A stretch of DNA of 64,000 bases from Candidatus Falkowbacteria bacterium (GTDB lineage: Bacteria; Patescibacteriota; Patescibacteriia; Patescibacteriales; UBA12465): the NCBI GenBank assembly GCA_037132255.1, contig JBAXPN010000001.1, positions 17,020 to 81,019 on the forward strand, read 5' to 3'. Each line of letters begins with the position of its first letter. Positions within the stretch are counted from its first letter, which is position 1. Made by a program: the position numbers and the translations under genes. The notes beneath the pieces were generated by a model. The model saw nothing but the letters and a program-made list of their open reading frames with translations. It did not search any database and was not told where the DNA came from. This document shows, piece by piece, positions 1 through 47,838 of the stretch.

Positions 1-30
1 ATAAGTTCGAAAAATAAAATATGCAAAAAT

Positions 31-1980: not shown

Positions 1981-3789
1981 ATGCCGAAAATAAATGACAT
2001 ACCAAATTTGGAAAACATTCCAAAATTTATAAAAGATTTCTCGAAAGAAGAATCAAAAGATGAAAGGTACCAGGCCGCCGTTGATATTCGTGCTAAAAGA
2101 TCGGAATATTTTAATGAGGAAAAAATTGAAAAAGCTAGACAAGTAGAATCAGAAAAGGAAGGAAATGAAAGAAGAAGGTTATTGTCAGAGCAGCTAGAAA
2201 AAATTTATAATCTTAAAAATGAGATTACTGAACTTTCAGAATCTGGTTTAAAAAAAATACTAAATTATTTTGAATTAAAAAAGATTAGAGCGGAGATTGT
2301 CATTGGAAAAAAAACATATGAAGAATTAAATGACCAGTTTAATAAGAATAATGCGATTGAATCATTAGTTTCTCAAAAAACAGAAGAAGAAATATTATTA
2401 CCTTGGCAGACGACGAAAATAATGCTGGATAATTTTTATCAGGAACAGGAAAAAAAATGGGCGAATAGTGAATATGCCAGAGAAGATGTGATTAAGTATT
2501 TTTCTGAAAAAAATCTTGCTGCATTATCACTTGAAGAATACACCCTTTTGCTAAAGCGTTTTTCAGGTGAGATGGTAACTCATGTTACCAGGCAGGGAGT
2601 AAGGGATCATGTCGGGCATTCATATCATACGGCCGGTGAAGGTGAATTTTCTGAGGGATTTTCTAAAATGATTGAGGACGGTCGATTGCGTTCACCGCTA
2701 GGGGTTAGGTTAATTGAAAATGAAAAAGAAAAAGCTCTTGCTAAATTCCTGTCATTAGATAATTTTAATACCAAAGAAGAGGCCCTTGCTCATTTGTCTG
2801 CTATTACTAATACTAGTCAAGATTCGGGATCATATATGGACAGCATGGCCGTACATTTTGCCGCCGAAGAAGTAGCTGATGATTACTACGGATCAGAGAA
2901 GGGAAACGAAATTTTTATTGCGTATCCATCTTTGTATATCGCTTCGCAATATTATTTTAGAGGTTTTTTAGATGATAATAGCGGGGGTTATTGGAATGAT
3001 AGTTGGGTATGGGCGAATGAAGAAAAAGGAATTGATTTGAATACTGGGATTATTTTTATCCCTGAAGAAGCTAAAGTTGATCGACAAACTGGCTCTAGAT
3101 ATGAGTTAGATGAAGACAGAAAACCGATTAAGAATCAAGAATATTATGAATTAATTAGAAAAGTCGTCAATTCTGAAGATTTTTATGATTTTGCTGGGCA
3201 AGTTATAGAAATTACGGGCTATTGTTCAGGATTTTTTGAAAGTCATTGGGATACGTCAAGCTTAACGTTAGAAGATGAATTAGTAATTAAAAAATTAGAT
3301 CCATTTTTAAAAAAACTGGAACAAGAATTTAATATTACTGATAAGCGTTTGCAGCAGGCAATTATGAGATACGACAACTTAACAAATTTTGTTCAAGAAA
3401 GAAAAAATCGAGAGATGGGAATAAAGGAAAAGGAGTTTTATTCCTTTGATTATTATATTAATAAGGCATTAAAACAACAAGGAATTTTGTTTTCTGAAAC
3501 TAAGGATGACCTTAGTTCGAAGGAATTTTGGGAAAATAAATTTAGGGCAAATTCTAAAACAAAGCCATCCAAGATTGTCTATTATCATGGCATAGACGCA
3601 ACGAATGCTCTTAATAAATGGAGAGAGGAAAATGAAATAATTAAAAAAAAGGCTAGCCATGATATGGGTTTTCCAGAAAAGCATATAAACACAAATGAAC
3701 CGCCAGCAATATCTGGCATTGATCGTTTTCAGACTTTGGCAGAAAAAGTAATTGAAGATTATTTTAATAAAAAAGAAGTTGTAGAGTAG
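1981..3789 (+). CDS. Uncharacterised 602-aa protein: Lys/Glu-rich coiled-coil N-terminus plus unassigned globular region
   Basis: Long uninterrupted ORF in an AT-rich genome. The N-terminal ~140 aa are heptad-like and charged. The central segment HVTRQGVRDHVGHSYHTAGEGEFSEGF matches no family I recognise. Confidence 0.75.
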   Translation: MPKINDIPNLENIPKFIKDFSKEESKDERYQAAVDIRAKRSEYFNEEKIEKARQVESEKEGNERRRLLSEQLEKIYNLKNEITELSESGLKKILNYFELKKIRAEIVIGKKTYEELNDQFNKNNAIESLVSQKTEEEILLPWQTTKIMLDNFYQEQEKKWANSEYAREDVIKYFSEKNLAALSLEEYTLLLKRFSGEMVTHVTRQGVRDHVGHSYHTAGEGEFSEGFSKMIEDGRLRSPLGVRLIENEKEKALAKFLSLDNFNTKEEALAHLSAITNTSQDSGSYMDSMAVHFAAEEVADDYYGSEKGNEIFIAYPSLYIASQYYFRGFLDDNSGGYWNDSWVWANEEKGIDLNTGIIFIPEEAKVDRQTGSRYELDEDRKPIKNQEYYELIRKVVNSEDFYDFAGQVIEITGYCSGFFESHWDTSSLTLEDELVIKKLDPFLKKLEQEFNITDKRLQQAIMRYDNLTNFVQERKNREMGIKEKEFYSFDYYINKALKQQGILFSETKDDLSSKEFWENKFRANSKTKPSKIVYYHGIDATNALNKWREENEIIKKKASHDMGFPEKHINTNEPPAISGIDRFQTLAEKVIEDYFNKKEVVE

Positions 3790-16786: not shown

Positions 16787-17878
16787 ATGAAAATATTAAT
16801 AGTCGTTACTAAATCAGAACTTGGTGGTGCTCAGGTTTTTGCGCTTAATTTAGCACGCGGGCTTAAAGCGCGCGGAGAGGATGTAACAATCGCCGGCGGT
16901 CCGGGTGAGTATTTGCCCGAAGCTTTAGCGAAGTCAGATATTCCTTTTTATCGTTTTCAAAATCTAGAGCGAAGTTATAATCCTTTGAAAGTTTTTAAAT
17001 TTATTAAGGAGTTAAAAGATTACGTTAAAAATAACGGCTTCGAAGTCGTGCATTTAAATAGTACTAATGCGCTCTTCGGAGTTTGGGGTTTAGCAGGTTT
17101 GAAACCGAGCCCAAAAATTGTTTTTACGGTTCATGGTTTATCTTTCCTTGATCCAAATCACCGCACGAATTTTATTATTAGTTTCGCTTATCAATTTCTT
17201 TTTAAAACAGCTTGGAAAAAAATTACGCGCCTAGTTTTTGTTAGTCGCCTGAATTATGCGAGCGTTTTAAAGCGTGGCTTGGCAAAAACAGGAGAGCTTA
17301 TTTATAATGGCCTCGATTTAAGGAGTGAGTATTTTGAGGGAAGAGAGGAAGCGCGGAAGTATCTCGGTACTCAAGTCGGCAGTGATTTAAGTAATGCCTA
17401 TATAGTTGGCTCAATTGGTCGCCTCGCTTATCCGAAGAATTATGAATTTTTAATTAATTCATTTACCGAAATTAAAAAATTAAAACCCAACGCAAAAATT
17501 ATTCTAATCGGCGAAGGGCCGGAGCGGGCGAAATATGAAACTCTAATTAAGTCTTACCGCTACGAAAAAGAGGTTTATCTCTTGGGAGAAATACAAGAAG
17601 CCGGGCGCTATTTAAGAGCCTTTGATTTATTTGTACTTCCTTCAGTCTTTGAAGGAATGTCCCTGAGCTTAATGGAAGCGCTCGCCGCCGGTGTTCCGGC
17701 AATTGCGAGTCGCGTCGGCGGGAGTGAAGAGATTATCGGTATCGAGAATTGCTTCGCGCTTAATAATAAGGCAGAGTTTTTAGAGAAATTAGTTTCTGTT
17801 AAACTAAAAAAAGTCGAAGATAATCTCTTCACTCAAGAAAAGATGGTTGAGGGATATCGAAATTTATATTTAAGCTAG
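16787..17878 (+). CDS. Glycosyltransferase family 4 (GT-B)
   Basis: N-terminal GGAQVF and C-terminal PSVFEGMSLSLMEALAAGVPAIASRVGG (E-x7-E region). Confidence 0.8.
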   Translation: MKILIVVTKSELGGAQVFALNLARGLKARGEDVTIAGGPGEYLPEALAKSDIPFYRFQNLERSYNPLKVFKFIKELKDYVKNNGFEVVHLNSTNALFGVWGLAGLKPSPKIVFTVHGLSFLDPNHRTNFIISFAYQFLFKTAWKKITRLVFVSRLNYASVLKRGLAKTGELIYNGLDLRSEYFEGREEARKYLGTQVGSDLSNAYIVGSIGRLAYPKNYEFLINSFTEIKKLKPNAKIILIGEGPERAKYETLIKSYRYEKEVYLLGEIQEAGRYLRAFDLFVLPSVFEGMSLSLMEALAAGVPAIASRVGGSEEIIGIENCFALNNKAEFLEKLVSVKLKKVEDNLFTQEKMVEGYRNLYLS

Positions 17879-18421
17879 TTTATTTGTCCATTCAACAAGA
17901 GCAACGAGCATTTCAGCGATTTTCTCTTTTGTTTTATCATCATTAATTTCTCCCTTCTCGTCGATTTTATCTTGGGCCATGCCAATCATTACTTCTGGCT
18001 TATTGATCGGATACATATCAAGAAAAACTAAACATTGTCTTAGATGATATTGCATACGAGCTGTTGCAATATTACCGACTGAAGCGCCCATAATAGCGGC
18101 CGGCTTACCAGCGAAGCTATTCTCACCCCAGGGGCGGGAAGCGACATCAAGGGCGTTTTTTAAGACGCCAGGGATAGAGTAATTATACTCGGGGCTAGAA
18201 AAGAGAAGCGCATCAGCGCTTTTTATTTTGGCTTTAAAATCCGTAATGGCCGGGATATTTGTATATTCCAGGTCCTGGTTATAAAGAGGAATGTTTTCCA
18301 AAGTAATTATCTCGAGTTCAACCTCAGGCGGCAATAATTTAGCAGCTGCCCGTAAAAGAGCGAGGTTATAGGATTCTTTCCGTAAACTACCGGAAATACC
18401 CAATATTTTAATTTTTTTCAT
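17870..18421 (-). CDS. NAD(P)H-dependent FMN reductase (ChrR/YieF-like)
   Basis: ILGISGSLRKESYN, SPEYNYSIPGVLKNALDVASRP. Its 3' end overlaps the convergent GT4 gene by 9 bp. Confidence 0.8.
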   Translation of the reverse strand: MKKIKILGISGSLRKESYNLALLRAAAKLLPPEVELEIITLENIPLYNQDLEYTNIPAITDFKAKIKSADALLFSSPEYNYSIPGVLKNALDVASRPWGENSFAGKPAAIMGASVGNIATARMQYHLRQCLVFLDMYPINKPEVMIGMAQDKIDEKGEINDDKTKEKIAEMLVALVEWTNKLA

Positions 18422-18496
18422 ATTTGATTCGTTTATTTAATAATAGCTATAATATATTACGCTTACTCAATGAATTAAATTTTAGAGCTGGATTAA

Positions 18497-18544
18497 TGAC
18501 CCCTTATGACCTCTATTGACCCCTTTAATAGGAAAGGATATAAT
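18497..18544 (+). promoter_or_regulatory. Near-consensus sigma-70 promoter (TTGACC-17-TATAAT) overlapped by three TGACC direct repeats at a 10-bp period
   Basis: TGACC at 18497, 18507 and 18517; the outer two repeats share the 9-mer TGACCCCTT. The -35 box is 18516-18521 and the -10 box is 18539-18544. ATG 18551 lies 6 nt after the -10. Confidence 0.6.
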
Positions 18545-18550
18545 TGAGTT

Positions 18551-18799
18551 ATGAATCAAGAAATACGTCCAAACGCGGTCTATACGACTAGCGAAACAGA
18601 AGCTCTGCTTAAGATCAGCAATAGCACGCTGAAGCGTCTTTTGAAGAAGGGAATTCTTAAAGCGAATAAGGTTGGTAAGCAATATCGCATTCTCGGGCTT
18701 GAGATTTTAAAGCTAGTCTCTCCTGTCGTTGAGGAGAAGGCAGTTAGTGCTTATCTTAATTTAAAGAAAAAGGTAATTGAGAAAACTAGTGAATGGTAA
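18551..18799 (+). CDS. Excisionase-family (MerR-like) helix-turn-helix DNA-binding protein
   Basis: YTTSETEALLKISNSTLKRLLKKGILKANKVGKQYRI matches the HTH_17/excisionase pattern. It is the first gene of the plus-strand glycan operon. Confidence 0.7.
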   Translation: MNQEIRPNAVYTTSETEALLKISNSTLKRLLKKGILKANKVGKQYRILGLEILKLVSPVVEEKAVSAYLNLKKKVIEKTSEW

Positions 18800-18811
18800 T
18801 TAATTAATAAA

Positions 18812-20080
18812 ATGATATTAACTGCCAAAAACATTAAGAAGAGGATAGGAGAAATCTGGTCTCATGCTGGATTCCGGCGGTATTTTCGGAATACGGGCTG
18901 GCTGTTTGCTTTTCGGATTGCGAGCATGCTGGTTTCTTTTTTGGTTTCGATTTCAGTGGCAAGATATTTGGGCCCGGAAAATCTGGGAATAATAAATTAC
19001 TCGGTAAGTTTAGTTGGATTGTTTTCTTTTTTAGCGAGTTTAGGAATTGATAGTATTTTATATCGAGATTTAGTCAACGAGCCGGAGAAAGAAAATAAGC
19101 TAATGGGTACAGCGTTTTTTTTGAGACTTTTTGGATCAGTATTAGCTTTTATTGGCGTTATTATTACGATGATAGTTCTTCACGGTAATGCTTTAACCAA
19201 TGCGATTATTTTAATTATTGCCTCCGGTTATATTTTTCAAGCATTTTTAGTAATCCCATTTTATTTTCAGGCAAAAGTTATTTCTAAACATCTAGCACTA
19301 TCAATGTTTTTCGGAGTGTTTGTTTTATCGGCGCTTAAATTATTATTAATGTTTGTAAGCGCGAATATATTTTACTTTGCGATTGTTTTGCTACTCGAGC
19401 CAATATTGTATATGGTGATTTATTGGTTTATTTATAATCAGGCTGGTCGGAAAATTTTTGATTGGCGATTTGATAAAAAAATAGCCAAAACAATGCTGCT
19501 TGTTTCTTGGCCATTAATGTTTACCGGTGCTTTCGCGGCAATATATTCGCGCATCGATCAAGTAATGCTTGGCTCTTTACTAAACGCGAGAGCGGTCGGT
19601 ATTTATAGTGTTTCCGCTCTACTTTCAGAGTATTGGTATTTTGTTCCTTTAGGAATAGTTAGTTCTTTGGTACCGGCGATAATAAACGGGAAAAAGTCGG
19701 GAGAGATAACTTATAAAAAACGTTTAAAAAGCCTTCTGGGTTTAGTGGCATTAATCGGTTTAGCTGCGGCCGCTTTTTTTACGATATTTTCCGATTGGAT
19801 AATCCAGTTTTTTTACGGCGCAAATTATATTGAAGCGGCAAATGTTTTAAAGATATATATATGGGGCGGAATCGGTATGAGTTTAGGATTTGTTGTTAAT
19901 CAGCTTTTGATTATAGAAAATAAAACAAAGATAATTTTTATTTTTGGTTTAATTAGTATGTTGGTTAATGTAATCTTGAATTTAGTATTGATACCGAGAT
20001 TCGGTATGCATGGGGCGGCGATCGCAACGCTTATTTCATACTCGATAATTCCGCTTCCGATTTTGTTTATTAAATATTAA
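18812..20080 (+). CDS. Oligosaccharide flippase (Wzx-like, MOP superfamily)
   Basis: 422 aa with ~12 predicted TM helices. Lies in a glycan-locus context. Confidence 0.7.
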   Translation: MILTAKNIKKRIGEIWSHAGFRRYFRNTGWLFAFRIASMLVSFLVSISVARYLGPENLGIINYSVSLVGLFSFLASLGIDSILYRDLVNEPEKENKLMGTAFFLRLFGSVLAFIGVIITMIVLHGNALTNAIILIIASGYIFQAFLVIPFYFQAKVISKHLALSMFFGVFVLSALKLLLMFVSANIFYFAIVLLLEPILYMVIYWFIYNQAGRKIFDWRFDKKIAKTMLLVSWPLMFTGAFAAIYSRIDQVMLGSLLNARAVGIYSVSALLSEYWYFVPLGIVSSLVPAIINGKKSGEITYKKRLKSLLGLVALIGLAAAAFFTIFSDWIIQFFYGANYIEAANVLKIYIWGGIGMSLGFVVNQLLIIENKTKIIFIFGLISMLVNVILNLVLIPRFGMHGAAIATLISYSIIPLPILFIKY

Positions 20081-20087
20081 TTTGCAT

Positions 20088-20960
20088 ATGATTTCAGTAA
20101 AAGTAAGTGGAGGTCTAGGAAATCAAATGTTCCAATATGCTATTGGGCGGAATTTAGCTGAAAAGAATAATACCCAGCTTAAATTAGATATCACCGCCCT
20201 TTTAAATAGCTTGCCGAAAAAGGATTTTAGTTTTAGAGAGTTTGGTCTAGATGTATTTCAAGTGAAATATAAATTCAATATTTGTTCTCGTCTGGCGCTA
20301 GCAACTGGATTAAAAAATATATTTTTTATCATGAATAAAGTGGGTCTCATTTTTAGGAATAAAATTAGACCAATAATAGTAGAGAAGGGACAATTTAATT
20401 TCGAGGAAAAAGTTTTAGATTTGAAGGATGAGTTATATTTAGATGGTTATTGGCAAAATGAGAGATATTTTTTAGAAATATCTGATATAATTAGGCAAGA
20501 GTTTTTATTAAAAAATTCGCTTGATGGTTGGGCAAGTAATTGGCAAAAGCAAATAAACTCAGTCAATTCAGTTGCTATTCATATCAGAAGGGGCGACTAT
20601 GTTAACCTGGGGCTGAGTGAAATTTGCGGGCTAGATTATTATGAGAGAGCAATTGAATTAATTAAATCAAAAATTGAAAATCCTGAATTCTTTATCTTTT
20701 CCGATGATCCCAAATGGGCTAGTGATAATTTTTCCGGAGATAATATTCACATTGTTTCAAGTATAGAGAATAAAAGTGCGGCAATTGAAATGTATTTGAT
20801 GTCGGCCTGTGCTCATCAAATTATCGCCAATAGTTCCTTTAGTTGGTGGGGCGCGTGGTTAAATAAAAATATAAATAAAATAGTTATTGCTCCGAGTAAG
20901 TGGACAATTGGGACAGAAAATAGTCCCATTCTTACAACTTGGATAAAGGCACATGTATGA
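20088..20960 (+). CDS. Alpha-1,2-fucosyltransferase-like glycosyltransferase (GT11), intact copy
   Basis: GT11 motifs GGLGNQMFQYA, GYWQNERYF, HIRRGDY, ANSSFSWWGAWL. The track starts at TTG 20082; ATG is at 20088. Confidence 0.8.
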   Translation: MISVKVSGGLGNQMFQYAIGRNLAEKNNTQLKLDITALLNSLPKKDFSFREFGLDVFQVKYKFNICSRLALATGLKNIFFIMNKVGLIFRNKIRPIIVEKGQFNFEEKVLDLKDELYLDGYWQNERYFLEISDIIRQEFLLKNSLDGWASNWQKQINSVNSVAIHIRRGDYVNLGLSEICGLDYYERAIELIKSKIENPEFFIFSDDPKWASDNFSGDNIHIVSSIENKSAAIEMYLMSACAHQIIANSSFSWWGAWLNKNINKIVIAPSKWTIGTENSPILTTWIKAHV

Positions 20961-21877
20961 TTAAAGATAATTTAACATTTAAGCAGTGGATGAAGAAAAT
21001 ATTACCCGCAAGGAGTCTTTATTATCTTGATAGAATCTATCGTAAAATAATTAAATTTGCCCCAGTCGTTAGCAAAATTTCGAATTTTTATGTCCCTATT
21101 TATCAAGGAGCGAAATCAGATATTAAAAATGATGTTAATGATGACCAAGATTCAATTTCTGTAATTTTGAGTGGATACAAACGACCACACACGCTGACGG
21201 AACAAATTATTTCTGTAAAAAATCAGACACACAAGCCGAAAGAGATATTATTTTGGCAAAATAAATCTGATAAAATAGTAAATTTTGATAAGAAAGCAGT
21301 TTCTCAGATGAAGGCTGCAATATCAAATTATAATTTTGGCGTATGGGCGCGATTTGCCTTCGCTCTTAATTGTAAATCTGAATATGTTTGTATATTAGAC
21401 GATGATACAATTCCTGGGAGTCGATGGTTGGAAAATTGTCTTGCCTCATATAAAAAAAAGCCAGGACTTTATGGCACAATTGGATTAATTTTTGAATCAA
21501 CCGAGACTTATTACAAGGCACAAAGACTGGGCTGGGATGGCATTAATAATCATGACATAACCGAAGTTGATATTGTTGGGCATGCTTGGTTTTTTAAAAG
21601 AGAATCTCTATCTATGTATTGGAGAGACTTGCCGGATTTTGAAGATGTTTATGTGGGAGAGGATATGCATTTTTCTCATATGTTGCAAAAATATAGCGAC
21701 ATGAAAACGTATGTTCCTCCACACCCAATTAATTCGATGGAAATGTGGGGAAGTATCAAGGGAGAAAAATATGGAAGCGATGCAGTGGCTACTGCTGGTT
21801 TTGCTGTTCCCATAATGGACAAGTATTACAAAAAAATAATATCAAGGGGTTTTAAAATTATCAATGAAAATAAATAA
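20957..21877 (+). CDS. GT-A fold glycosyltransferase (DxD type), family uncertain
   Basis: SVILSGYKRPHTLTEQIISVKNQT plus ILDDDTIPG (DxD). The ATGA overlap with the upstream stop suggests translational coupling. Confidence 0.45.
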   Translation: MIKDNLTFKQWMKKILPARSLYYLDRIYRKIIKFAPVVSKISNFYVPIYQGAKSDIKNDVNDDQDSISVILSGYKRPHTLTEQIISVKNQTHKPKEILFWQNKSDKIVNFDKKAVSQMKAAISNYNFGVWARFAFALNCKSEYVCILDDDTIPGSRWLENCLASYKKKPGLYGTIGLIFESTETYYKAQRLGWDGINNHDITEVDIVGHAWFFKRESLSMYWRDLPDFEDVYVGEDMHFSHMLQKYSDMKTYVPPHPINSMEMWGSIKGEKYGSDAVATAGFAVPIMDKYYKKIISRGFKIINENK

Positions 21878-21892
21878 TTTTATATAAATAAT

Positions 21893-22582
21893 ATGAAAAC
21901 ATTTAGAGGGGAGATAGAAAAGATACTTGAAATGTTAAAATCAGAAAAGAAATTTTCGTTTAGTAAATATGCTGATGGAGAATGGTCTATAATGGAAGGA
22001 AGACGTTTAAATAATAAAGAGTTTAGTTTTTCATTTTTTGATAAATTTTACAAAAATAAATTAATTGAATCATTTAGGTTTCGAGATGAAAATTATTTTG
22101 TTGGTATAAGCTGTTTTTGTTGTCAGGGAGATAATTATTATAAAATGAAAGAATTTTGCGGCCAAGATGAAGAACATCTAACATTTGCGAATATTTTTGT
22201 TAACTCGAATTATGCCTTTTACGTTGATAATTTTATAGATGAATATAAAAAACGAGACATAGTTTTAGTTGCTAACAAGAATTCAAAAATAGAAAAATTA
22301 CCATTCGAAATAGAAAAGTTTTATCCAGTAGGTTTCTCTGCATGGAAGAAAAACTATAATTTAGCCGAAATAATAAAAAAAGAGAAATATAAAAACAAAT
22401 TATTTCTTTTTGCCTGTGGGCCTCTGGGTAATATTTTAGCTCATCAGCTTTGGGAGGATAATAAGGACAATGTTTATTTAGACATTGGGTCGACATTGAA
22501 TCCTTGGTTGCAAAGTGAGGGCTTCAAGAGAGACTACTATTGCGATGGCGCAAATAGTAAAAAAGAATGCATTTGGGCTTAG
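21893..22582 (+). CDS. Hypothetical; possible GT-D (DUF1792-like) glycosyltransferase
   Basis: N-terminal FSKYADGEWSIM resembles the family's FGDGE metal-binding motif. Lies in a glycan-locus context. Weak call. Confidence 0.3.
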   Translation: MKTFRGEIEKILEMLKSEKKFSFSKYADGEWSIMEGRRLNNKEFSFSFFDKFYKNKLIESFRFRDENYFVGISCFCCQGDNYYKMKEFCGQDEEHLTFANIFVNSNYAFYVDNFIDEYKKRDIVLVANKNSKIEKLPFEIEKFYPVGFSAWKKNYNLAEIIKKEKYKNKLFLFACGPLGNILAHQLWEDNKDNVYLDIGSTLNPWLQSEGFKRDYYCDGANSKKECIWA

Positions 22583-22613
22583 TAGTTTTTAATATGTTTT
22601 ATTGAAATTATTT

Positions 22614-23714
22614 ATGAAGAAAAATAGTAAGATTAAAATAGCTATTATCCTTGGAACTCGTCCAGAAATAATAAAAATGTCGCCAATAATTAGACAATGT
22701 AAAAAGCAAAATATTGATTTCTTTATTATACATTCCAATCAGCATTACGCGGAAAAATTAGATAAGATTTTTTTTAAAGAGTTAAACTTGCCAAGACCAA
22801 AATACAATCTTAATGTCGGCTCAGGCAAACATGGTGAAATAACTGGGAGAATGCTGCTTTTAATAGAAGAAATATTAATTAAAGAGTCTCCAAGTAGAGT
22901 TTTAGTTCAGGGAGACACGAATACTGTTTTGGCGGGTGGGTTAGCTGCTAGAAAATTAAATATTCCTGTTGGACACATCGAGGCTGGATTACGCTCTTAT
23001 GATGAAGAAATGCCTGAAGAGGTTAATCGAGTCCTAGTCGACCACTTAGCTGCTTATTTATTTCCGCCGACTGAATTAGCAAAACGGAATCTCGTAAAGG
23101 AGGGTATTGATAAAAACAGAATTTATGTAACAGGCAATACGGTCGTTGATTCGTTATTTGAAAATCTAGAGATAGCTAATCGAAAATCTAAAATAATGGC
23201 AAATTTAAAAATAAATTCCAAACAATATATTCTAGCAACAGCCCATAGACAGGAAAATGTTGACAACAAGGTAAGATTGATAAATATAATGGACGGACTT
23301 TCACGCTTAAGCAAAGAATTAAAAATACCTGTGATTATTCCGGCGCATCCGCGATTAATAAAAATGTTAGAAATTTTCGCGATTAAAGTTGGGGATACAA
23401 TTAAGTTTATCCCTCCGTTGGGCTATCTAGATTTTCTTGTTTTAGAAAAAAATGCCTTAGTTATCGCTACGGACTCAGGCGGGGTCCAGGAGGAAGCCTG
23501 TGTACTAAATATACCTTGTATTACGCTAAGAAATAATACAGAACGCCCGGAAACTATTGATGTTGGTGCAAATATATTAGTTGGAACTAACCCAGATTCG
23601 ATATTAAGAGGGGGGAAAAAAATACTAAAGAATGTGAAAAAATGGAAAAATCCCTTTGGTACTGGACATGCCGCTGAAAAAATAATAACAATAATAATTA
23701 AGCAAAAATTATAA
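22614..23714 (+). CDS. wecB: UDP-N-acetylglucosamine 2-epimerase (non-hydrolysing)
   Basis: LGTRPEIIKMSP, VQGDTNTVLAG, GHIEAGLRS, TDSGGVQEEA, RNNTERPE. The track starts at TTG 22602. Confidence 0.88.
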   Translation: MKKNSKIKIAIILGTRPEIIKMSPIIRQCKKQNIDFFIIHSNQHYAEKLDKIFFKELNLPRPKYNLNVGSGKHGEITGRMLLLIEEILIKESPSRVLVQGDTNTVLAGGLAARKLNIPVGHIEAGLRSYDEEMPEEVNRVLVDHLAAYLFPPTELAKRNLVKEGIDKNRIYVTGNTVVDSLFENLEIANRKSKIMANLKINSKQYILATAHRQENVDNKVRLINIMDGLSRLSKELKIPVIIPAHPRLIKMLEIFAIKVGDTIKFIPPLGYLDFLVLEKNALVIATDSGGVQEEACVLNIPCITLRNNTERPETIDVGANILVGTNPDSILRGGKKILKNVKKWKNPFGTGHAAEKIITIIIKQKL

Positions 23715-23745
23715 TTATGTATTGTAGATAAATTTAAAACAATTT

Positions 23746-24648
23746 ATGCAAATATCATTATTAACAAGAAGGCCTGGAGTATTTAACATTGATTATTTAA
23801 AAGAAATAATTAAGCGTCTTTTGAATAAAAAATCTGGACCGCTTTCTGTTCTGGAAAGTATGAAGAGGGGCCTCTCTTTTCTTGGCGTAGAGTATTCAGT
23901 TAATGATAAAATATTTGAGATTGTCCATGTTGTTAGTGGCGTTAATGCTCTGCGTTATGCGCTTGATTTGAAAAAGAAGAATTTAATTAAAACTTTAATC
24001 GTCGGGCCGGCGATTATCGCTTCTCCGGAAGAAGAAGGCGGTATTATTAATGACCCTAGTATCGATGTTATAGTTTTTCCGTCTCAGTGGACAAAGAATT
24101 ACTTTTGCTCAAAGTTACCAGAACTAAAAGATAAGATAGAACTTTGGCCAGCCGGAGTAATGGACTTAGGTGAAAATAGCCAGGACAAAGAAGGGGTATT
24201 AATTTTTAATAAGAATAATGTTAAATTAACAGGAGAAATATCCGGATATTTAAATAATAAAATTAAATATAGTATTATTAAATATGGTAAGTTTAAGCGA
24301 GAAGATTATTATAAATTATTAGATGCAAATAAATATCTAATTTATCTTTCTGATTCCGAAAGTCAGGGTTTAGCCCTTCAAGAAGCCTGGATGAGAAATG
24401 TGCCAACATTTGTTTATAATCGGGGTTATTGGCAATTAGGTTCTAATAAATGGACGGATGAAAAGATAAGCGCGCCATATTTAAATGATGAGACGGGAAT
24501 GTTTTTTAAAGATATAGAAGATTTTAAAAATAAGTTCGATATATTTATATCGCAAAAATATAATCCTAGAAAATATTGTTTAGAGAATTTAAGTGATAGA
24601 AAGTCGGCAGAAATATTAATAAATATAATTAATAAATATGTTAAATAA
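23746..24648 (+). CDS. Putative GT-B glycosyltransferase (GT1/GT4-like C-terminal half)
   Basis: YLSDSESQGLALQEAWMRNVPTF resembles the GT4 E-x7-E region. The N-terminal half is not recognisable. Confidence 0.45.
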   Translation: MQISLLTRRPGVFNIDYLKEIIKRLLNKKSGPLSVLESMKRGLSFLGVEYSVNDKIFEIVHVVSGVNALRYALDLKKKNLIKTLIVGPAIIASPEEEGGIINDPSIDVIVFPSQWTKNYFCSKLPELKDKIELWPAGVMDLGENSQDKEGVLIFNKNNVKLTGEISGYLNNKIKYSIIKYGKFKREDYYKLLDANKYLIYLSDSESQGLALQEAWMRNVPTFVYNRGYWQLGSNKWTDEKISAPYLNDETGMFFKDIEDFKNKFDIFISQKYNPRKYCLENLSDRKSAEILINIINKYVK

Positions 24649-25300
24649 GATTTTATTTAAACTTTTTGGGGTTCGTCTGATAAGCAGTCAATGTGGAGAG
24701 GACTTAATTATTGAGACCCTGCTCCCGTTTAAAAAAGAAGGATTTTATATTGATGTCGGCGCTAATCATCCGATAAAATATAATAATACTTTTTTATTTA
24801 AGAATAAGGGTTGGCGGGGAATTAATATTGAGCCGAATCCGAAAAGAATGAAATTGTTTAAAATGTTGAGACGAAGAGATGTTAACTTAAATGTCGGTAT
24901 TGGGCAGACAGAATCAGAATTAGATTTTTATGTTTTTGACGAACATACTTTAAGCACATTTGATACAAATTCAGTCGAAGAGTTTAAAAAAATTGGTCAT
25001 AAAGTTATAGAAGTTATTAAAGTACCTATTGTGCCTTTAAAAAATATTCTCGAAAAATATTGCGCGAAGCAAGAAATTGATTTGCTTTCTGTCGACACAG
25101 AGGGCTACGATCTCGAAGTATTGAAAAGTAATGATTGGAATAAGTTCCGTCCCCGATTCATTATTATTGAAACGCTTGAATATCGCAAAGAAGGAGAAGG
25201 GAAGAAACTAAATAATATATACGATAGCTTCATGTTAGAAGTTGGGTATAATAAAATAGCTGACACATATATAAATACAATTTATGAAAAAATCAACTAA
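24638..25300 (+). CDS. FkbM-family methyltransferase
   Basis: IDVGANHP...NIEPNP...LLSVDTEGYDLEVLKS follows the FkbM pattern. Confidence 0.75.
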   Translation: MLNKILFKLFGVRLISSQCGEDLIIETLLPFKKEGFYIDVGANHPIKYNNTFLFKNKGWRGINIEPNPKRMKLFKMLRRRDVNLNVGIGQTESELDFYVFDEHTLSTFDTNSVEEFKKIGHKVIEVIKVPIVPLKNILEKYCAKQEIDLLSVDTEGYDLEVLKSNDWNKFRPRFIIIETLEYRKEGEGKKLNNIYDSFMLEVGYNKIADTYINTIYEKIN

Positions 25301-26030
25301 GAGAAAATTATTTAAACTTTATCGAATTACTACGGGTTTGCTTTCTTTCCGCGCCCCCGGATTCTTTCAAGATTATTTTGCTTTTAAATCCCGCGGGAGT
25401 GAACGCTTTAGCTTATCGCCATTTGATTTCTATCCGCGAATGGGTGAGAAAACTCCGAATACTGCCTTTGATGCTCATTACGTTTATCATACTTCTTGGG
25501 CGGCCAGAAAAGTTAAAGAGATAAATCCCGAAATACACACTGATATTTCTTCTAGCCTTTATTTTTGCGGACTTGTTTCGGCCTTTGTTCCTGTTGATTT
25601 TTACGACTATCGTCCAGCAGAATTAACTTTATCAGGCTTAAAAACAGCATCAGCTGATTTAACGAAACTATTTTTTGCGGATAATAGTATTAAGTCGATC
25701 TCTTGCATGCATACGATTGAACATGTTGGCCTTGGTCGCTATGGCGATCCGATTGACCCCGAGGGTGATATTACCGCCATTAATGAATTAAAGAGGGTAA
25801 CCGCAATCGGCGGCTCAATTCTGTTTGTTGTTCCAGTCGGAGTACCACGCATCGAATATAATGCCCATCGTATATATTCATATGAAATGATTATGGAATC
25901 TTTTAGTGGCATGAAGCTAAAAGAATTTTCCCTGATTAATGACTACGGAAAATTTATTACGAACGCTGACCCAAGTTTAGTTAAGGAGCAGAAGTATAGT
26001 TGCGGTTGTTTTTGGTTTATCAAAGAATAA
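25284..26030 (+). CDS. Class I SAM-dependent methyltransferase (DUF268/Methyltransf_11-like)
   Basis: FADNSIKSISCMHTIEHVGLGRYGDPIDPEGD and GGSILFVVP. Overlaps the upstream gene by 17 nt. Confidence 0.6.
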   Translation: MKKSTKRKLFKLYRITTGLLSFRAPGFFQDYFAFKSRGSERFSLSPFDFYPRMGEKTPNTAFDAHYVYHTSWAARKVKEINPEIHTDISSSLYFCGLVSAFVPVDFYDYRPAELTLSGLKTASADLTKLFFADNSIKSISCMHTIEHVGLGRYGDPIDPEGDITAINELKRVTAIGGSILFVVPVGVPRIEYNAHRIYSYEMIMESFSGMKLKEFSLINDYGKFITNADPSLVKEQKYSCGCFWFIKE

Positions 26031-26037
26031 TTTAATT

Positions 26038-26889
26038 ATGTTGATCGTTGAACTTCAAGGCGGATTAGGCAACCAATTATTCCAATATGCATTTGGACGT
26101 CGTTTGGCGATTATTCGAAATGAAGAATTATTTCTCGATGTGACTGGTTTAGAAAATAATCTTGTCATTAAGCGCGAATACGGTCTAGAGCCCTTCAATG
26201 TAATAGCGCGCTTAGCCGACCCTAAAGTAGTGGAGAAAATAAAATATCCCTATGGTTTATTTTCCAAGCTAATTATAATCTTTTATCAAAAGATATTGCG
26301 CTTATTTTATATTGGCTATGAGCCGCACCTTCTTAAGTCTAAGGCGAAATATTTTTCTGGATTTTTTTAGAGTTATAAATACTTAGAGCCGATATGCGGT
26401 GAGCTCCTAAAAGAAATAAGTCTTAAAGAATCGCTGGCTACAAAATACACAGAGCTTCTGGCAGAAATTTCAACGACAAATTCTGTTTCTTTGCATATTC
26501 GTCGTGGTGATTATGTATCCGACCCTAATACGAAAGCGGCGCACTATACCTACGGAATGGAATATTATTCTTCTGCGATTAAATTAATCGATTCTAAATT
26601 AGATAATCCGGTTTATTTTATTTTCTCCGATGATATTGCTTGGGTAAAGGAGAATTTAAAGATTAGTTCTTCGGTAATATTTGTTTCCGCTCCGAGTACA
26701 CATGACTACGAGGAATTAATGCTGATGAGTAAATGTAAAAATAATATTATTGCTAATTCAAGTTTTAGTTTTTGGGGAGCCTGGCTCAATCAGAATAGTA
26801 ATAAAATAGTCATTGCGCCGAAAAGGTGGAATAATGTTTATGAAAGCGAGTATAAAGAATTACTCCCTCATTCTTGGTTAAAAATATAA
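26038..26889 (+). pseudogene. Second GT11 fucosyltransferase-like gene interrupted by one in-frame TAG (26368-26370)
   Basis: Both track ORFs (26038-26370 and 26491-26889) are in the same frame. Reading through gives ...KYFSGFF*SYKYLEP...SLHIRRGDYV...ANSSFSFWGAWL. The TAG aligns with the Gln of the GYWQN/GYFQS motif. The C-terminal half has no ATG start. Confidence 0.75.
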
Positions 26890-26890
26890 T

Positions 26891-27652
26891 ATGGAAACAA
26901 AAGTTTCAATCATAATTTGTACTTATAATCGAGCAAACTATATCGCGCATGCGCTTGATAGTATTTTAATGCAGACTTATCAGGGCTACGAAGTTATTAT
27001 TATTGATGACGCCTCGACTGATGATACCGAAGAACTCGTAAAGAAATATTTATCTCTCGATATGAGAATTAAATATTTTAAGAATGAGAAAAATCTTGGA
27101 ATACCGAAGAGTCGCAATAAAGGAGTCGTCTTATCACAAGGTGAATATATTGCAATGCTCGATAGTGATGATTATTGGTTGAGCGCTGAAAAGATCGCTA
27201 AACAAATTGAATTACTTGATTCAGATAAAGAGCTTGGACTCATCGGCGCAGGAATTATTTGTATTGATGAAAATGATCAAGAAACAAAAAAAGATATCTT
27301 TGCGACAGAGGATTATGAAATTAGAGAGAGAATCTTAGCCAAGAACCAATTTATGCAATCGAGCGTAGTCTTCCGTAAAGATGCTTATAAAGTAGTTGGT
27401 GGCTATCAGGAAAAATTTACAGTTTGCGAGGATTTCGATTTATGGTTAGCGATAGGCAGTAAATATAAATTGGCGAATTTACTTGCGCCCATGGTTGCGT
27501 ATCGCCTTCACTCAGGTGGAATTTCTAAAACCAGAAAATTAGAAATCGCACGAACAACTGACGAAATTATCGATAAATATAAAAAAAATTACCCGAATTA
27601 TTTACGGGCAAAATTTAAATCAATTCTACGAATAATGAAGTCTTATGTCTAA
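26891..27652 (+). CDS. Glycosyltransferase family 2
   Basis: VSIIICTYNRANYIAHALDSILMQTY, DDASTDDT, LDSDD. Confidence 0.85.
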   Translation: METKVSIIICTYNRANYIAHALDSILMQTYQGYEVIIIDDASTDDTEELVKKYLSLDMRIKYFKNEKNLGIPKSRNKGVVLSQGEYIAMLDSDDYWLSAEKIAKQIELLDSDKELGLIGAGIICIDENDQETKKDIFATEDYEIRERILAKNQFMQSSVVFRKDAYKVVGGYQEKFTVCEDFDLWLAIGSKYKLANLLAPMVAYRLHSGGISKTRKLEIARTTDEIIDKYKKNYPNYLRAKFKSILRIMKSYV

Positions 27653-28193
27653 GGAAAAACTAAATCTCGGAGCAGGGACGAAAAATCTTGAGGGCTATAT
27701 TAATGTTGATAACCGGAAAGAATGTAATCCGGAAGTTATCCATGATTTAAATATTATTCCGTACCCCTTCGCTGACAGTCAATTCTCGGAAGTTATAATG
27801 GATCACGCGATTGAGCATCTGAGTGACCCACTGGCCGTTCTTGGTGAGATATATCGTATTAGCGAACCAAACGCTATGATTTATATCAACTGTCCGCATT
27901 TTTCCGGTAACTGGGTTCACCCTGGTCATAAGTCGGCGATTAGTGTACATCTTTTTGATTTCCTTCGCCCAGGCGGGGAAGAGGTCTATGGAAATGCTAA
28001 TTTTGAACTTGAAAAAGTAGAGCTTCGTTGGTTCCGTTATCTTATTGGCCGGCGCGCGAATCCAATTTTAAAAATTTTAAATTATTTAATAAATATTGTC
28101 GCTAATTTAAGTCCGTCGTTTACGGAAAGATTTTTGTGTTATTCGGTGGGCGGATTTGAGGAAATAAGATTTACGGCAAGAGTAGTAAAATAA
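27645..28193 (+). CDS. SAM-dependent methyltransferase (Methyltransf_11/23-like)
   Basis: LNLGAGTKNLEGYINVD (motif I) and an IMDHAIEHL region. Confidence 0.6.
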   Translation: MSKEKLNLGAGTKNLEGYINVDNRKECNPEVIHDLNIIPYPFADSQFSEVIMDHAIEHLSDPLAVLGEIYRISEPNAMIYINCPHFSGNWVHPGHKSAISVHLFDFLRPGGEEVYGNANFELEKVELRWFRYLIGRRANPILKILNYLINIVANLSPSFTERFLCYSVGGFEEIRFTARVVK

Positions 28194-44584: not shown

Positions 44585-44854
44585 ATGTCATTAGGACGTC
44601 ATAACGATGGGCAATTTGATTTGATTAGTGATTTTGAAGCAACTGGACTCGCGAAGCCTGCGGAGAAGCAAAGAGTGCCGCGCAAGACCATTGCCGATAA
44701 GATGATCGATGAAATGTATAAGAAAGTCGCCGAAGCGGAAAAGGTGCAAAGCGAAAAAAAGAAAGTAACTAATAGCGTAAGCATTAAGGGACTTATCGAC
44801 GAGATTCATGCGTTAAAGCCCGAAGATAATATTGAAAATAAAGATAAAGAATAA
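44585..44854 (+). CDS. Hypothetical small charged protein (89 aa)
   Basis: The ORF fills the gap before ileS. Lys/Glu-rich, no recognisable motif. Confidence 0.45.
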   Translation: MSLGRHNDGQFDLISDFEATGLAKPAEKQRVPRKTIADKMIDEMYKKVAEAEKVQSEKKKVTNSVSIKGLIDEIHALKPEDNIENKDKE

Positions 44855-44868
44855 TTATAATAAAAAAT

Positions 44869-47838
44869 ATGTCAGATAAAGTAAAGCAAGCTCCTCCAGC
44901 TGCTGTTAATCATCCGGCGCCAGCGAATGCATTTGTCGCCATGGAAGAAACAATTTTAGATTTTTGGGAAAAGTCAGATATTTTTGCCAAATCAATTCAG
45001 AAAAATTCACCGCAAGGTAATTATGTTTTTTTCGAAGGGCCGCCAACAGCTAATGGCATGCCGGGCATTCATCACGTTTTAGCGCGTTCTTTTAAGGACG
45101 TTATGCCGCGTTTTAAAACCATGAATGGATATCGGGTTGAGCGTAAAGCTGGTTGGGACACACACGGACTTCCGGTAGAACTTCAGGTTGAAAAACAATT
45201 AGGAATTTCTGGCAAACCAGATATTGAAAAATACGGTATTAAAGAATTCAATGAAAAATGTAAGGAGAGTGTTTGGGTCTATCTTGATGAATGGCAGAAA
45301 TTAACTCGCCGCATCGCTTTTTGGGTAGACATGGAGCACCCTTATATTACCTATGAAAATACTTATATCGAATCTTTGTGGTGGATATTAAAAGAAATCG
45401 ATAAAAAAGGCTTGGTTTATAAAGGTCATAAAGTTGTGCCCCATTGTCCGCGTTGCGGCACTGCGCTTTCAACTCATGAAGTCGCCCAAGGCTATAAATT
45501 AACGAAAGATAATTCGGTTTATTTAAAGTTTAAAGTCACTCATGGAAACTCTCAGGTTAATCCGGGCGATTTTATTTTAGCTTGGACAACTACTCCTTGG
45601 ACTTTGCCGGGGAACGTTGCGCTTGCCGTTGGAAAAGATATTGATTATGTTCTTGTAAAACATGAAAATGAAAATTTTGTTTTAGCTAAAGAACTCACTG
45701 AAAAAGTATTTAAAGATTTAAGCCATGAAATTATTAAAGAATTCAAAGGCTCTGAATTATTAGATTTAGAATATGAACCTTTATTTGAAATTCCTTTAAT
45801 TCGCGCTGACGAAATTAAGTCTGGTAAAAAGGCTTATCGCGTTGTGCCGGCAAATTTTGTAACTACCTCGGACGGTACCGGCGTTGTTCATACCGCTGTT
45901 ATGTACGGTGAGGACGATTATAATTTAGGAGAAGAAGTTGGCTTACCAAAAGTTCATACGGTTGATGAAGCCGGCCATTTCACAAATGATTTATCCGCTT
46001 ACGGCCTCGAAGGAAAATTTGTCAAAAGCGCCGGAACGGAAAAAATTATTATCGATTATTTAATAGAGAAGGGAATACTTTTTAAAGAAGAAATTTACGA
46101 GCATGACTATCCTTTCTGCTGGCGTTGTGATACTCCGCTTCTTTATTATGCAAAAGACTCTTGGTTTATTGCCATGAGCACACTTAAGGAAAAATTATCG
46201 GCGAATAATAAAAATATTAATTGGGTCCCTGAACATATTAAAGAAGGTCGCTTTGGCGAATGGTTAAATAATGTTAAAGATTGGGCGATTTCGCGTGAAC
46301 GTTATTGGGGTACACCACTTCCAATTTGGGAATGTGAAACATGCAATAAGCATCACGTAATTGGTAGCGTTGAAGAACTTGGCGAATTAAGTGGCCAGAA
46401 AGTTACAATAGACTCGGATATCCATAAACCGGAAATCGATACTTATGAATTTACTTGCGTTGAATGCGGCGGAAAAATGAAACGCGTCAAAGAAGTTTTT
46501 GATTGCTGGTTTGATTCTGGCGCCATGCCTTATGCGCAGCATCATTATCCTTTTGAAAATCAAGAAATGATTGATAACAATGTTCAATTCCCAGCTGAGT
46601 ATATTTGCGAGGCGATTGATCAGACTCGTGGTTGGTTCTATACCTTACTCGCTATTTCTACGACCTTGGGTAAAGGGACACCTTATAAAAATGTAATTTG
46701 TCTCGGTCATATTAATGATAAATTCGGCAAGAAAATGTCGAAGTCAAAAGGGAATATTGTTAGTCCCTGGGAAGTTATTTCGCAATATGGCGTTGATGCG
46801 GTTCGTCAGCATATGTATACGATTAATCAACCCGGCGAAGGGAAACGTTATGATTTAGATGACGTTAAAGATGTTTTCCGAAAAAATATAATGTTGCTCT
46901 GGAATGTTTATAAATTCTATGAAACATACGCCACGGAAGAAAAAGGTGAAGCAAAAAAACCAGAGAGTCAAAATGTTTTAGATTTATGGATTCTCGCAAA
47001 ACTCTCAGTTTTAACTAAGAGCATGACTTTTGAATTAAATCAGTATCATATTTATGAAGCCGCTCGCCAAATTCCAGAATTTATTGATGAGCTTTCAACT
47101 TGGTATCTACGCCGAAGCCGCGATCGCTTTAAGTCCGATGACTTAGAAGATAAGAAAAATGCACTTGCGACGACTCATTACGTTTTAGGAGAACTAGCTA
47201 AATTAATGGCGCCTTTCATGCCTTTTGTTTCCGAGAATCTTTGGCAGAAAGTTAATGGCTATAATTTTAATGACGCAAATCGCTCTGTTCATTTAGAAGC
47301 CTGGCCAGTGAACGATGAGACTGACAATACAAAATTATTAGCTGACATGGACGTGATTCGTAAGATTGTTGAGCTTGGGCTCGCGAAGCGCGATGAGGCC
47401 GGAATTAAGATTCGTCAGATGCTTTCGAAAATTACTGTTAAAGTTAAGTCAGAAATTGCGCCTGAGTATATTGAGCTCATTAAAGATGAATTAAATTTAA
47501 CCGGTGTAGAATTTGCGGAGACTAAAGAAGATAAGATTGAAGTTGAGCTCGATACGGAAATTACGCCGGAATTAAAAGAAGAAGGTTTGAAGAGAGAATT
47601 GATTCGCTTCGTTAATATGTTACGTAAAGAAGGAAATCTAAATATTAATGATGAGACAAGTATTTATATTGCTGGGGCGAGCGAAGAATTAAAATCCGCG
47701 CTTATTAAAAAGAAAATGGATATCATGAAAGATACATTAAGCACGGAAATTAATTTCGTTGACTCCTTGCCGGAAGTTCTGGTTAGTAAAGAGGTAAAGA
47801 TTGATGAAGTTAAATTAATGCTCGGCCTAAAGAAGTAA
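44869..47838 (+). CDS. ileS: Isoleucyl-tRNA synthetase, type 2 (eukaryote-like)
   Basis: FFEGPPTANGMPGIHH (HIGH), KMSKSKGN (KMSKS), WTTTPWTLP, zinc motifs CPRCGT and CWRCDTP. Confidence 0.92.
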   Translation: MSDKVKQAPPAAVNHPAPANAFVAMEETILDFWEKSDIFAKSIQKNSPQGNYVFFEGPPTANGMPGIHHVLARSFKDVMPRFKTMNGYRVERKAGWDTHGLPVELQVEKQLGISGKPDIEKYGIKEFNEKCKESVWVYLDEWQKLTRRIAFWVDMEHPYITYENTYIESLWWILKEIDKKGLVYKGHKVVPHCPRCGTALSTHEVAQGYKLTKDNSVYLKFKVTHGNSQVNPGDFILAWTTTPWTLPGNVALAVGKDIDYVLVKHENENFVLAKELTEKVFKDLSHEIIKEFKGSELLDLEYEPLFEIPLIRADEIKSGKKAYRVVPANFVTTSDGTGVVHTAVMYGEDDYNLGEEVGLPKVHTVDEAGHFTNDLSAYGLEGKFVKSAGTEKIIIDYLIEKGILFKEEIYEHDYPFCWRCDTPLLYYAKDSWFIAMSTLKEKLSANNKNINWVPEHIKEGRFGEWLNNVKDWAISRERYWGTPLPIWECETCNKHHVIGSVEELGELSGQKVTIDSDIHKPEIDTYEFTCVECGGKMKRVKEVFDCWFDSGAMPYAQHHYPFENQEMIDNNVQFPAEYICEAIDQTRGWFYTLLAISTTLGKGTPYKNVICLGHINDKFGKKMSKSKGNIVSPWEVISQYGVDAVRQHMYTINQPGEGKRYDLDDVKDVFRKNIMLLWNVYKFYETYATEEKGEAKKPESQNVLDLWILAKLSVLTKSMTFELNQYHIYEAARQIPEFIDELSTWYLRRSRDRFKSDDLEDKKNALATTHYVLGELAKLMAPFMPFVSENLWQKVNGYNFNDANRSVHLEAWPVNDETDNTKLLADMDVIRKIVELGLAKRDEAGIKIRQMLSKITVKVKSEIAPEYIELIKDELNLTGVEFAETKEDKIEVELDTEITPELKEEGLKRELIRFVNMLRKEGNLNINDETSIYIAGASEELKSALIKKKMDIMKDTLSTEINFVDSLPEVLVSKEVKIDEVKLMLGLKK

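Follow-up and report, generated by a model that had tools for sequence, protein, structure and literature searches.

The window, by which we mean the whole 64-kb stretch of DNA analysed, carries a gene for a small helix-turn-helix (HTH) protein of 82 amino acids. Its stop codon is followed after 12 nt by a Wzx flippase gene, the start of a co-directional glycan operon that also contains GT11, GT2 and GT-D genes, a UDP-GlcNAc 2-epimerase, methyltransferases, a split GT11 and a further GT2. On the other side, an array of direct repeats and a promoter precede the HTH gene, in an intergenic region of 129 nt shared with a divergent FMN reductase gene (Table 1). A longer reading frame for the HTH protein is ruled out by an in-frame TGA at 18545-18547.

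Table 1. Features around the HTH gene, in window coordinates.
Feature	Position	Strand	Remarks
FMN reductase gene	17870..18421	-	divergent; shares the intergenic region with the array
Rival upstream promoter-like site, TTGATT-18-TATAAT	18424..18453	+	10/12 in the consensus scan
Repeat unit 1, ATGACCCCTT	18496..18505	+	predicted -55 to -46 if the start is 18551
Repeat unit 2, ATGACCTCTA	18506..18515	+	predicted -45 to -36 if the start is 18551
Repeat unit 3, TTGACCCCTT	18516..18525	+	begins with the -35 hexamer TTGACC (18516-18521)
-10 hexamer, TATAAT	18539..18544	+	17 nt past the -35
Gene for the 82-aa HTH_17 winged-helix protein	18551..18799	+	Pfam HTH_17, 38.1 bits; TIGR01764, 31.8 bits
Co-directional glycan operon	18812..28193	+	downstream of the HTH gene

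A first-pass annotation of this DNA had described three TGACC repeats at exact 10-bp phasing, the outer two sharing an identical 9-mer and the third doubling as the -35 box of a promoter whose -10 lies 6 nt before the ATG of the HTH gene. Reading the sequence bears out each of these points: on the plus strand, copies of TGACC begin at 18497, 18507 and 18517, the 9-mer TGACCCCTT occupies both 18497-18505 and 18517-18525, TTGACC and TATAAT are separated by 17 nt within 18516-18544, and six nucleotides lie between the -10 and the ATG at 18551. The full repeat goes beyond mere TGACC and is a 10-bp direct unit, wTGACmCyTA, as defined from 103 Patescibacteria units. With up to two mismatches allowed, the pattern TGACCN5TGACCN5TGACC has one match in the window against 0.01 expected from shuffles. 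Furthermore, three TGAC at a period of 10 occur a single time within the 64 kb, and no match was found in the window at any other period from 6 to 15.

The same annotation had ranked the array promoter as the best sigma-70 promoter in the window, and here it went too far, as the promoter scores 11/12 in a consensus scan and six further sites in the window also reach 11/12, giving a seven-way tie. Transcription from the rival promoter-like site further upstream (Table 1) could produce an mRNA with a long leader in the genome of the window. That site is not conserved in the closest relative, whose HTH protein is 94% identical and in which the intergenic region has diverged and the array alone has been retained. 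No Rfam match was found, which, together with the position of the repeats upstream of the likely transcription start, disfavours reading them as an RNA element.

By its domain matches, the 82-aa protein is a member of the HTH_17/TIGR01764 family, scoring 38.1 bits against Pfam HTH_17 (PF12728; cut-off 27) and 31.8 bits against the excisionase-family domain TIGR01764 (cut-off 28.8). The annotation of a Candidatus Falkowbacteria MAG includes an identical protein, and proteins about 76-96% identical (typically ~80%) form more than 100 clusters from many Patescibacteria lineages. The N-terminus is conserved, with E4 and I5 invariant, and so is the C-terminal helix, which ends in an invariant W82. 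An AF2 model of the protein (pLDDT 91) consists of a strand (10-12), two helices (13-20 and 24-32), a wing (38-48) and a helix (49-56), and this winged helix is followed by a long C-terminal helix (58-79). When the model was compared with the PDB by Foldseek, the top matches were the BldC-DNA complexes 6ama and 6amk, with target-normalised TM scores of 0.73-0.82 and an rmsd of 1.5-1.9 A over ~50 residues at ~22% identity, and the next ranks were taken by Pukovnik Xis, RdfS, RacA and GlnR. The E-values are modest (~0.01), as expected of a domain of 50 residues. Neither phmmer nor a profile search of PDB sequences recovered BldC at E values up to 10.

BldC of Streptomyces, the founder of the BldC family (PDB 6AMA, 6AMK), is a small single-domain MerR/Xis-like winged helix on which the core of the HTH protein superposes, and its operators, like the array described here, consist of direct repeats that vary in number and follow each other at about one turn of the helix, which it binds as head-to-tail cooperative multimers of 2-4 protomers (PMC5859096). 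The two proteins differ in several respects. No relationship is detectable between their sequences, the structural identity being ~22%, and by sequence the HTH protein is not placed in the BldC family. The BldC unit is AATTxxxx(C), whereas the unit at the HTH gene is 10 bp long with a TGAC core; BldC has 68 aa and is without the extra conserved 22-residue C-terminal helix (58-79) of the HTH protein; and BldC serves a developmental regulon, whereas the HTH array lies on the -35 of the protein's own gene, at the head of a glycan operon. Judged from the model, BldC, a direct-repeat-binding transcription factor, would be the closest analogue of how the HTH protein works, rather than a working excisionase. 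Proteins with tandem HTH_17 domains exist naturally, with four to five domains ~52 aa apart (metagenomic representatives P0142, P0162, P0175, P0206 and P0225), and look like covalent head-to-tail arrays. Such fusions are what a head-to-tail array domain would predict, and they support cognate binding. Another protein, P0122 (159 aa), has an HATPase_c fragment fused ahead of the HTH domain, probably an artefact of gene calling or assembly.

We compared 80 orthologous loci from species-representative genomes, 36 of Patescibacteria type and 44 mostly from Omnitrophota MAGs; counts of conservation among them are uncorrected for phylogeny. The gene next downstream of the HTH gene (the +1 gene) shares its strand in 72 of 74 loci, and in 67 of these it begins within 150 nt. 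Among the 75 +1 proteins that were scanned against Pfam, the window's included, 24 match sugar-nucleotide epimerase/dehydratase families (GDP_Man_Dehyd, Epimerase; 22 of them also match Polysacc_synt_2), 19 match Wzx-type flippases (Polysacc_synt_3), five NeuB and three DegT aminotransferases, and the remainder includes ABC-2 transporters, glycosyltransferases and a cytidylyltransferase. Upstream neighbours are variable, often glycan-related (e.g. PMT_2, GT4), and differ between loci, and the FMN reductase is not a conserved partner. As the +1 genes are on the same strand and mostly glycan genes, the HTH gene holds a conserved place at the front of surface-glycan operons in both phyla. The proposal that the promoter controls the whole glycan operon is in keeping with the 12-nt gap to the Wzx gene and with this arrangement elsewhere, and the recurrence of repeats and HTH gene at the glycan loci of relatives, which had been suggested as a check, was found in both Patescibacteria and Omnitrophota. 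The first-pass annotation had also called a Xis-like HTH protein at a glycan locus unusual; the association itself is seen, but it is no local oddity, being conserved across two phyla.

Repeats are visible by eye in nearly all of the upstream regions of these orthologues. Three TGAC at a period of 10, with at most one mismatch and on the strand of the gene, lie within 200 nt upstream in 56 of 78 loci and within 300 nt, again on the same strand, in 58 of 78; about 20 of the 78 are without a clean three-unit array at the threshold used. By contrast with this period, no other in the range 7-14 gave an array within 300 nt of the gene in any of the 78 loci. The remaining 677 kb of flanks, searched on both strands, contain three such arrays, two of which sit at -253 and -292 of the same HTH gene. 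Arrays hold from two to six units, their orientation relative to the gene is constant across loci, and the consensus of the 10-bp unit is TTGACACCTA in Patescibacteria and ATGACTACTA in Omnitrophota. The strict 10-bp phase, with no other period, is what would be expected of the same-face operator that had been proposed, and the pairing of this array with the HTH gene is supported by its near absence elsewhere in the 677 kb and by covariation with the recognition helix of the protein.

A reverse scan of metagenomes for arrays was dominated by generic 10-mer tandem repeats. On the metagenomic contig L123, three copies of TTGACACCTA and a TATAAT (2255-2278, minus strand) lie directly upstream of a gene for a 503-aa Capsule_synth-like protein, with no HTH gene. 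Arrays at L102 and L178 stand upstream of a gene for a 23S_rRNA_IVP four-helix-bundle protein. Since the L123 array is found at a capsule gene that has no HTH gene beside it, the protein may have targets in trans, and the arrays of L123, L102 and L178 may be such targets. A viral-classed contig (L083, IMGVR_UViG_3300033516_000061, GC 0.34), in which a downstream HTH gene was not detected, holds an array of five perfect TTGACCCTTA units that ends at 2229 on the minus strand.

In the recognition helix, residues S23, S25, T26 and R29 are conserved in both phyla, beside the invariant TGAC core of the unit, and variation at residues 27 and 28 goes along with that at positions 6 and 7 of the unit, in raw counts that ignore shared ancestry. 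Counted in this way, with kinship ignored, K28 pairs with C at position 7 in 78 of 99 units, M28 pairs with A at position 7 in 40 of 61 units and also with T at position 6, C at position 6 accompanies L27, and T there accompanies T27. One Omnitrophota MAG (WJMG01) has two paralogous HTH loci, L057 and L066, with units of the flavours TGACTA and TGACCA and recognition helices STMMR and STTMR, respectively, differences that hint at paralogue-specific operator codes.

Because the repeats are real and recur before the same gene at the head of sugar operons in two phyla, the array is most likely the operator of the 82-aa protein itself, which would make this protein an undescribed regulator of cell-surface glycans. 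A different factor, such as an OmpR/PhoB-type response regulator, might instead bind the repeats, or tandem -35-like elements might strengthen promoter capture. Direct repeats of 10-11 bp are typical of OmpR-family sites (PMC5859096), the TGAC core is the core of a -35, and array-like sites are found without the HTH gene on L123 and L102/L178. However, the array is strictly linked to the HTH gene at 58 of the 78 loci, across two phyla, and is nearly absent from the flanks, its variable positions track the recognition-helix residues of that very gene, and just one unit per array has a correctly spaced -10. We regard both versions of this explanation as very unlikely.

The promoters of the orthologous loci share a common geometry, in which the -35 is always supplied by the last or second-last unit of the array, in the form TTGACm-16..18-TATAAT, and one unit only has a -10 at the correct distance. 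The promoter matches the consensus at 11-12 of 12 positions, with a spacer of 16-18 nt, in most loci, and a perfect unit lies inside the -35/-10 spacer in many of them (e.g. L006, L009, L016, L028). At 18 of 37 Patescibacteria loci, the window included, an in-frame ATG follows the end of the -10 by 6-9 nt; Omnitrophota loci have leaders with GGAGG instead. Consequently, the leaderless or nearly leaderless design put forward in the first-pass annotation, in which a transcript would begin close to the start codon, has a geometry that recurs among relatives. For the window, the -10 would place the transcription start at the A of the ATG at 18551, giving a leaderless mRNA. A GGAG or GAGG between -18 and -3 is missing from all 57 window ORFs that reach 100 aa, and the sequence 5' of their start codons is A/T-rich; since Shine-Dalgarno sequences are not used in this genome, the missing ribosome-binding site is not special to the HTH gene. 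A -10 so near to the ATG was seen at only 2 of 23 gene starts examined. A second leaderless candidate in the window is TTGAAA-18-TATAAT (11/12; 44832-44861), 7 nt before the ATG of a 989-aa ORF (44869-47838, plus strand).

From these elements we propose a mechanism that we consider probable: a three-unit operator and a BldC/Xis-like protein, assembling head-to-tail, would occlude the -35 and so bring about negative autoregulation of a leaderless HTH-glycan mRNA. The operator would comprise the 30 bp from 18496 to 18525, three units of wTGACmCyTA at a period of exactly 10 bp, and we infer that it is bound by the HTH protein, cooperatively and with one protomer per unit. The monomers would probably lie head-to-tail on one face of the helix, by analogy with BldC on its direct repeats. 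Given a start at 18551, the array would span -55 to -26, with unit 3 as the -35, and three protomers would fill the major groove into which sigma region 4 has to bind; as the promoter-proximal unit is itself the -35 hexamer, an occupied array should exclude sigma region 4. The outcome would be negative autoregulation of an mRNA that starts at the ATG and runs into the glycan operon. That the protein would repress rather than activate is argued from the overlap with the -35 and from a promoter that is already consensus. Negative autoregulation is likewise favoured by a promoter that reaches consensus unaided and by the perfect unit in the -35/-10 spacer of many loci.

The main rival to this mechanism retains the same protein-operator pair and has the protein activate, the upstream protomers recruiting RNA polymerase while sigma region 4 sits on the proximal TTGAC unit, in the manner of PhoB or another class II activator or through MerR-type remodelling of the spacer. 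The units resemble -35 hexamers, so that there could be room for both sigma region 4 and the protein on the array, which reaches upstream to about -55, where activators bind, and the fold is MerR-like. Activator-dependent promoters usually have a poor -35, as do those of PhoB and MerR, whereas here the promoter is already at 11-12 of 12 with a 16-18-nt spacer in most loci; the spacer of 19-20 bp needed for MerR-type activation is absent, and a perfect unit inside the spacer of so many loci also speaks against activation. We therefore think activation unlikely, and repression by -35 occlusion remains the reading that we prefer.

Canonical MerR regulators share with the HTH protein a MerR-type N-terminal winged helix, and some HTH loci have a unit in the -35/-10 spacer, where MerR operators lie. 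MerR operators, however, are palindromic within a spacer of 19-20 bp, whereas the HTH system has direct repeats and spacers of 16-18 bp (17 here), and MerR proteins carry a C-terminal effector domain, which the HTH protein, at 82 aa, is without; a coiled-coil dimer formed by its C-terminal helix would be hypothetical. The direct repeats, the 17-bp spacer and the length of 82 aa led us to reject a canonical MerR regulator.

In another reading, the protein would act as a functional excisionase or recombination directionality factor (RDF), and the repeats would be its arm-type sites, used in excision of a mobile glycan island or in inversion of the promoter (phase variation). Several Xis-type proteins also repress promoters. 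The HTH protein shares the winged-helix fold and the Pfam/TIGRFAM domain family with lambda Xis, Pukovnik Xis (4J2N) and RdfS (8DGL), the TIGR01764 match and the structural similarity to Pukovnik Xis and RdfS being joined by weak PHROG excisionase matches (E ~6e-5), and Xis proteins and RDFs, too, bind direct repeats head-to-tail, forming filaments (PMC5859096). The genomic context is against it. The HTH locus is without a recombinase, att sites or a mobile-element setting, and the gene occupies a conserved chromosomal position as the first of glycan operons. No integrase or recombinase occurs among the 25 most frequent upstream or downstream neighbour families of 75-76 loci, nor in the window between 13716 and 31094; no convincing inverted repeats surround the promoter; and the orientation of the array to the gene never varies. 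A tblastn search of 50,697 phage records and 72,556 plasmid records found nothing, and an identity of ~80% across many Patescibacteria lineages resembles that of a core gene. On this context, with no recombinase among the 25 most frequent neighbour families, no phage or plasmid matches and no convincing flanking inverted repeats, we rejected an RDF identity, and we give a function in recombination hardly any credence.

In other systems, too, surface-glycan operons carry a dedicated regulator or cis-element at their 5' end. UpxY/UpxZ of Bacteroides and RfaH with ops/JUMPStart act on elongation and antitermination via NusG-like proteins; these differ from the HTH protein, which is a predicted promoter-bound winged helix with a direct-repeat operator. 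The best NCBIfam match of the protein is MamR of the magnetosome island (NF040990; E 1.7e-10, residues 2-54), which is likewise a small HTH_17-like protein and is found in an unrelated genomic context. Membership in MamR was rejected, the score being 41 bits against a cut-off of 100. Some Omnitrophota are magnetotactic, and a distant relationship to MamR is perhaps worth a look. Our literature search found no paper on the HTH family or its operator, nor on a connection of this family with glycan loci.

Most Patescibacteria and Omnitrophota, two phyla of ultra-small bacteria, have yet to be cultured, and to our knowledge targets have been identified for hardly any of their transcription factors. 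The HTH protein comes with a clear candidate operator, a predicted recognition code and a conserved class of targets, surface-glycan operons, and surface glycans are plausible determinants of host attachment and phage sensitivity in these organisms. If the proposed mechanism is right, it would carry the head-to-tail binding of direct repeats known from BldC into a new clade and give it a different function in physiology. As the promoter matches the sigma-70 consensus, the system is testable in E. coli or in vitro without culturing its source. A wider view, which we offer tentatively and hold to be somewhat unlikely as a whole, is that of a dedicated regulator of surface-glycan operons across Patescibacteria (CPR) and Omnitrophota: a BldC-like mini-protein that would polymerise on 10-bp units mimicking the -35, in competition with sigma region 4, with paralogue-specific codes (K28-C7, M28-A7) that would switch glycan loci independently and a C-terminal helix that would receive a signal. 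On this view, the pair would be among the first defined transcription factor-operator pairs in CPR bacteria and would give access to the way in which these episymbionts regulate their surface.

Within the glycan operon of the window, the second GT11 (fucosyltransferase-family) gene is split in two (26038-26889, plus strand). The first ORF (26038-26370) shares 42% identity with the N-terminus of the GT11 encoded at 20082-20960, the second (26491-26889) matches positions 168-286 of the GT11 profile, and the break falls at a run of seven T (26363-26369). The same sequence is present in an independent assembly (L213), and the split may mark either a pseudogene or a gene whose phase varies by slipped-strand mispairing.
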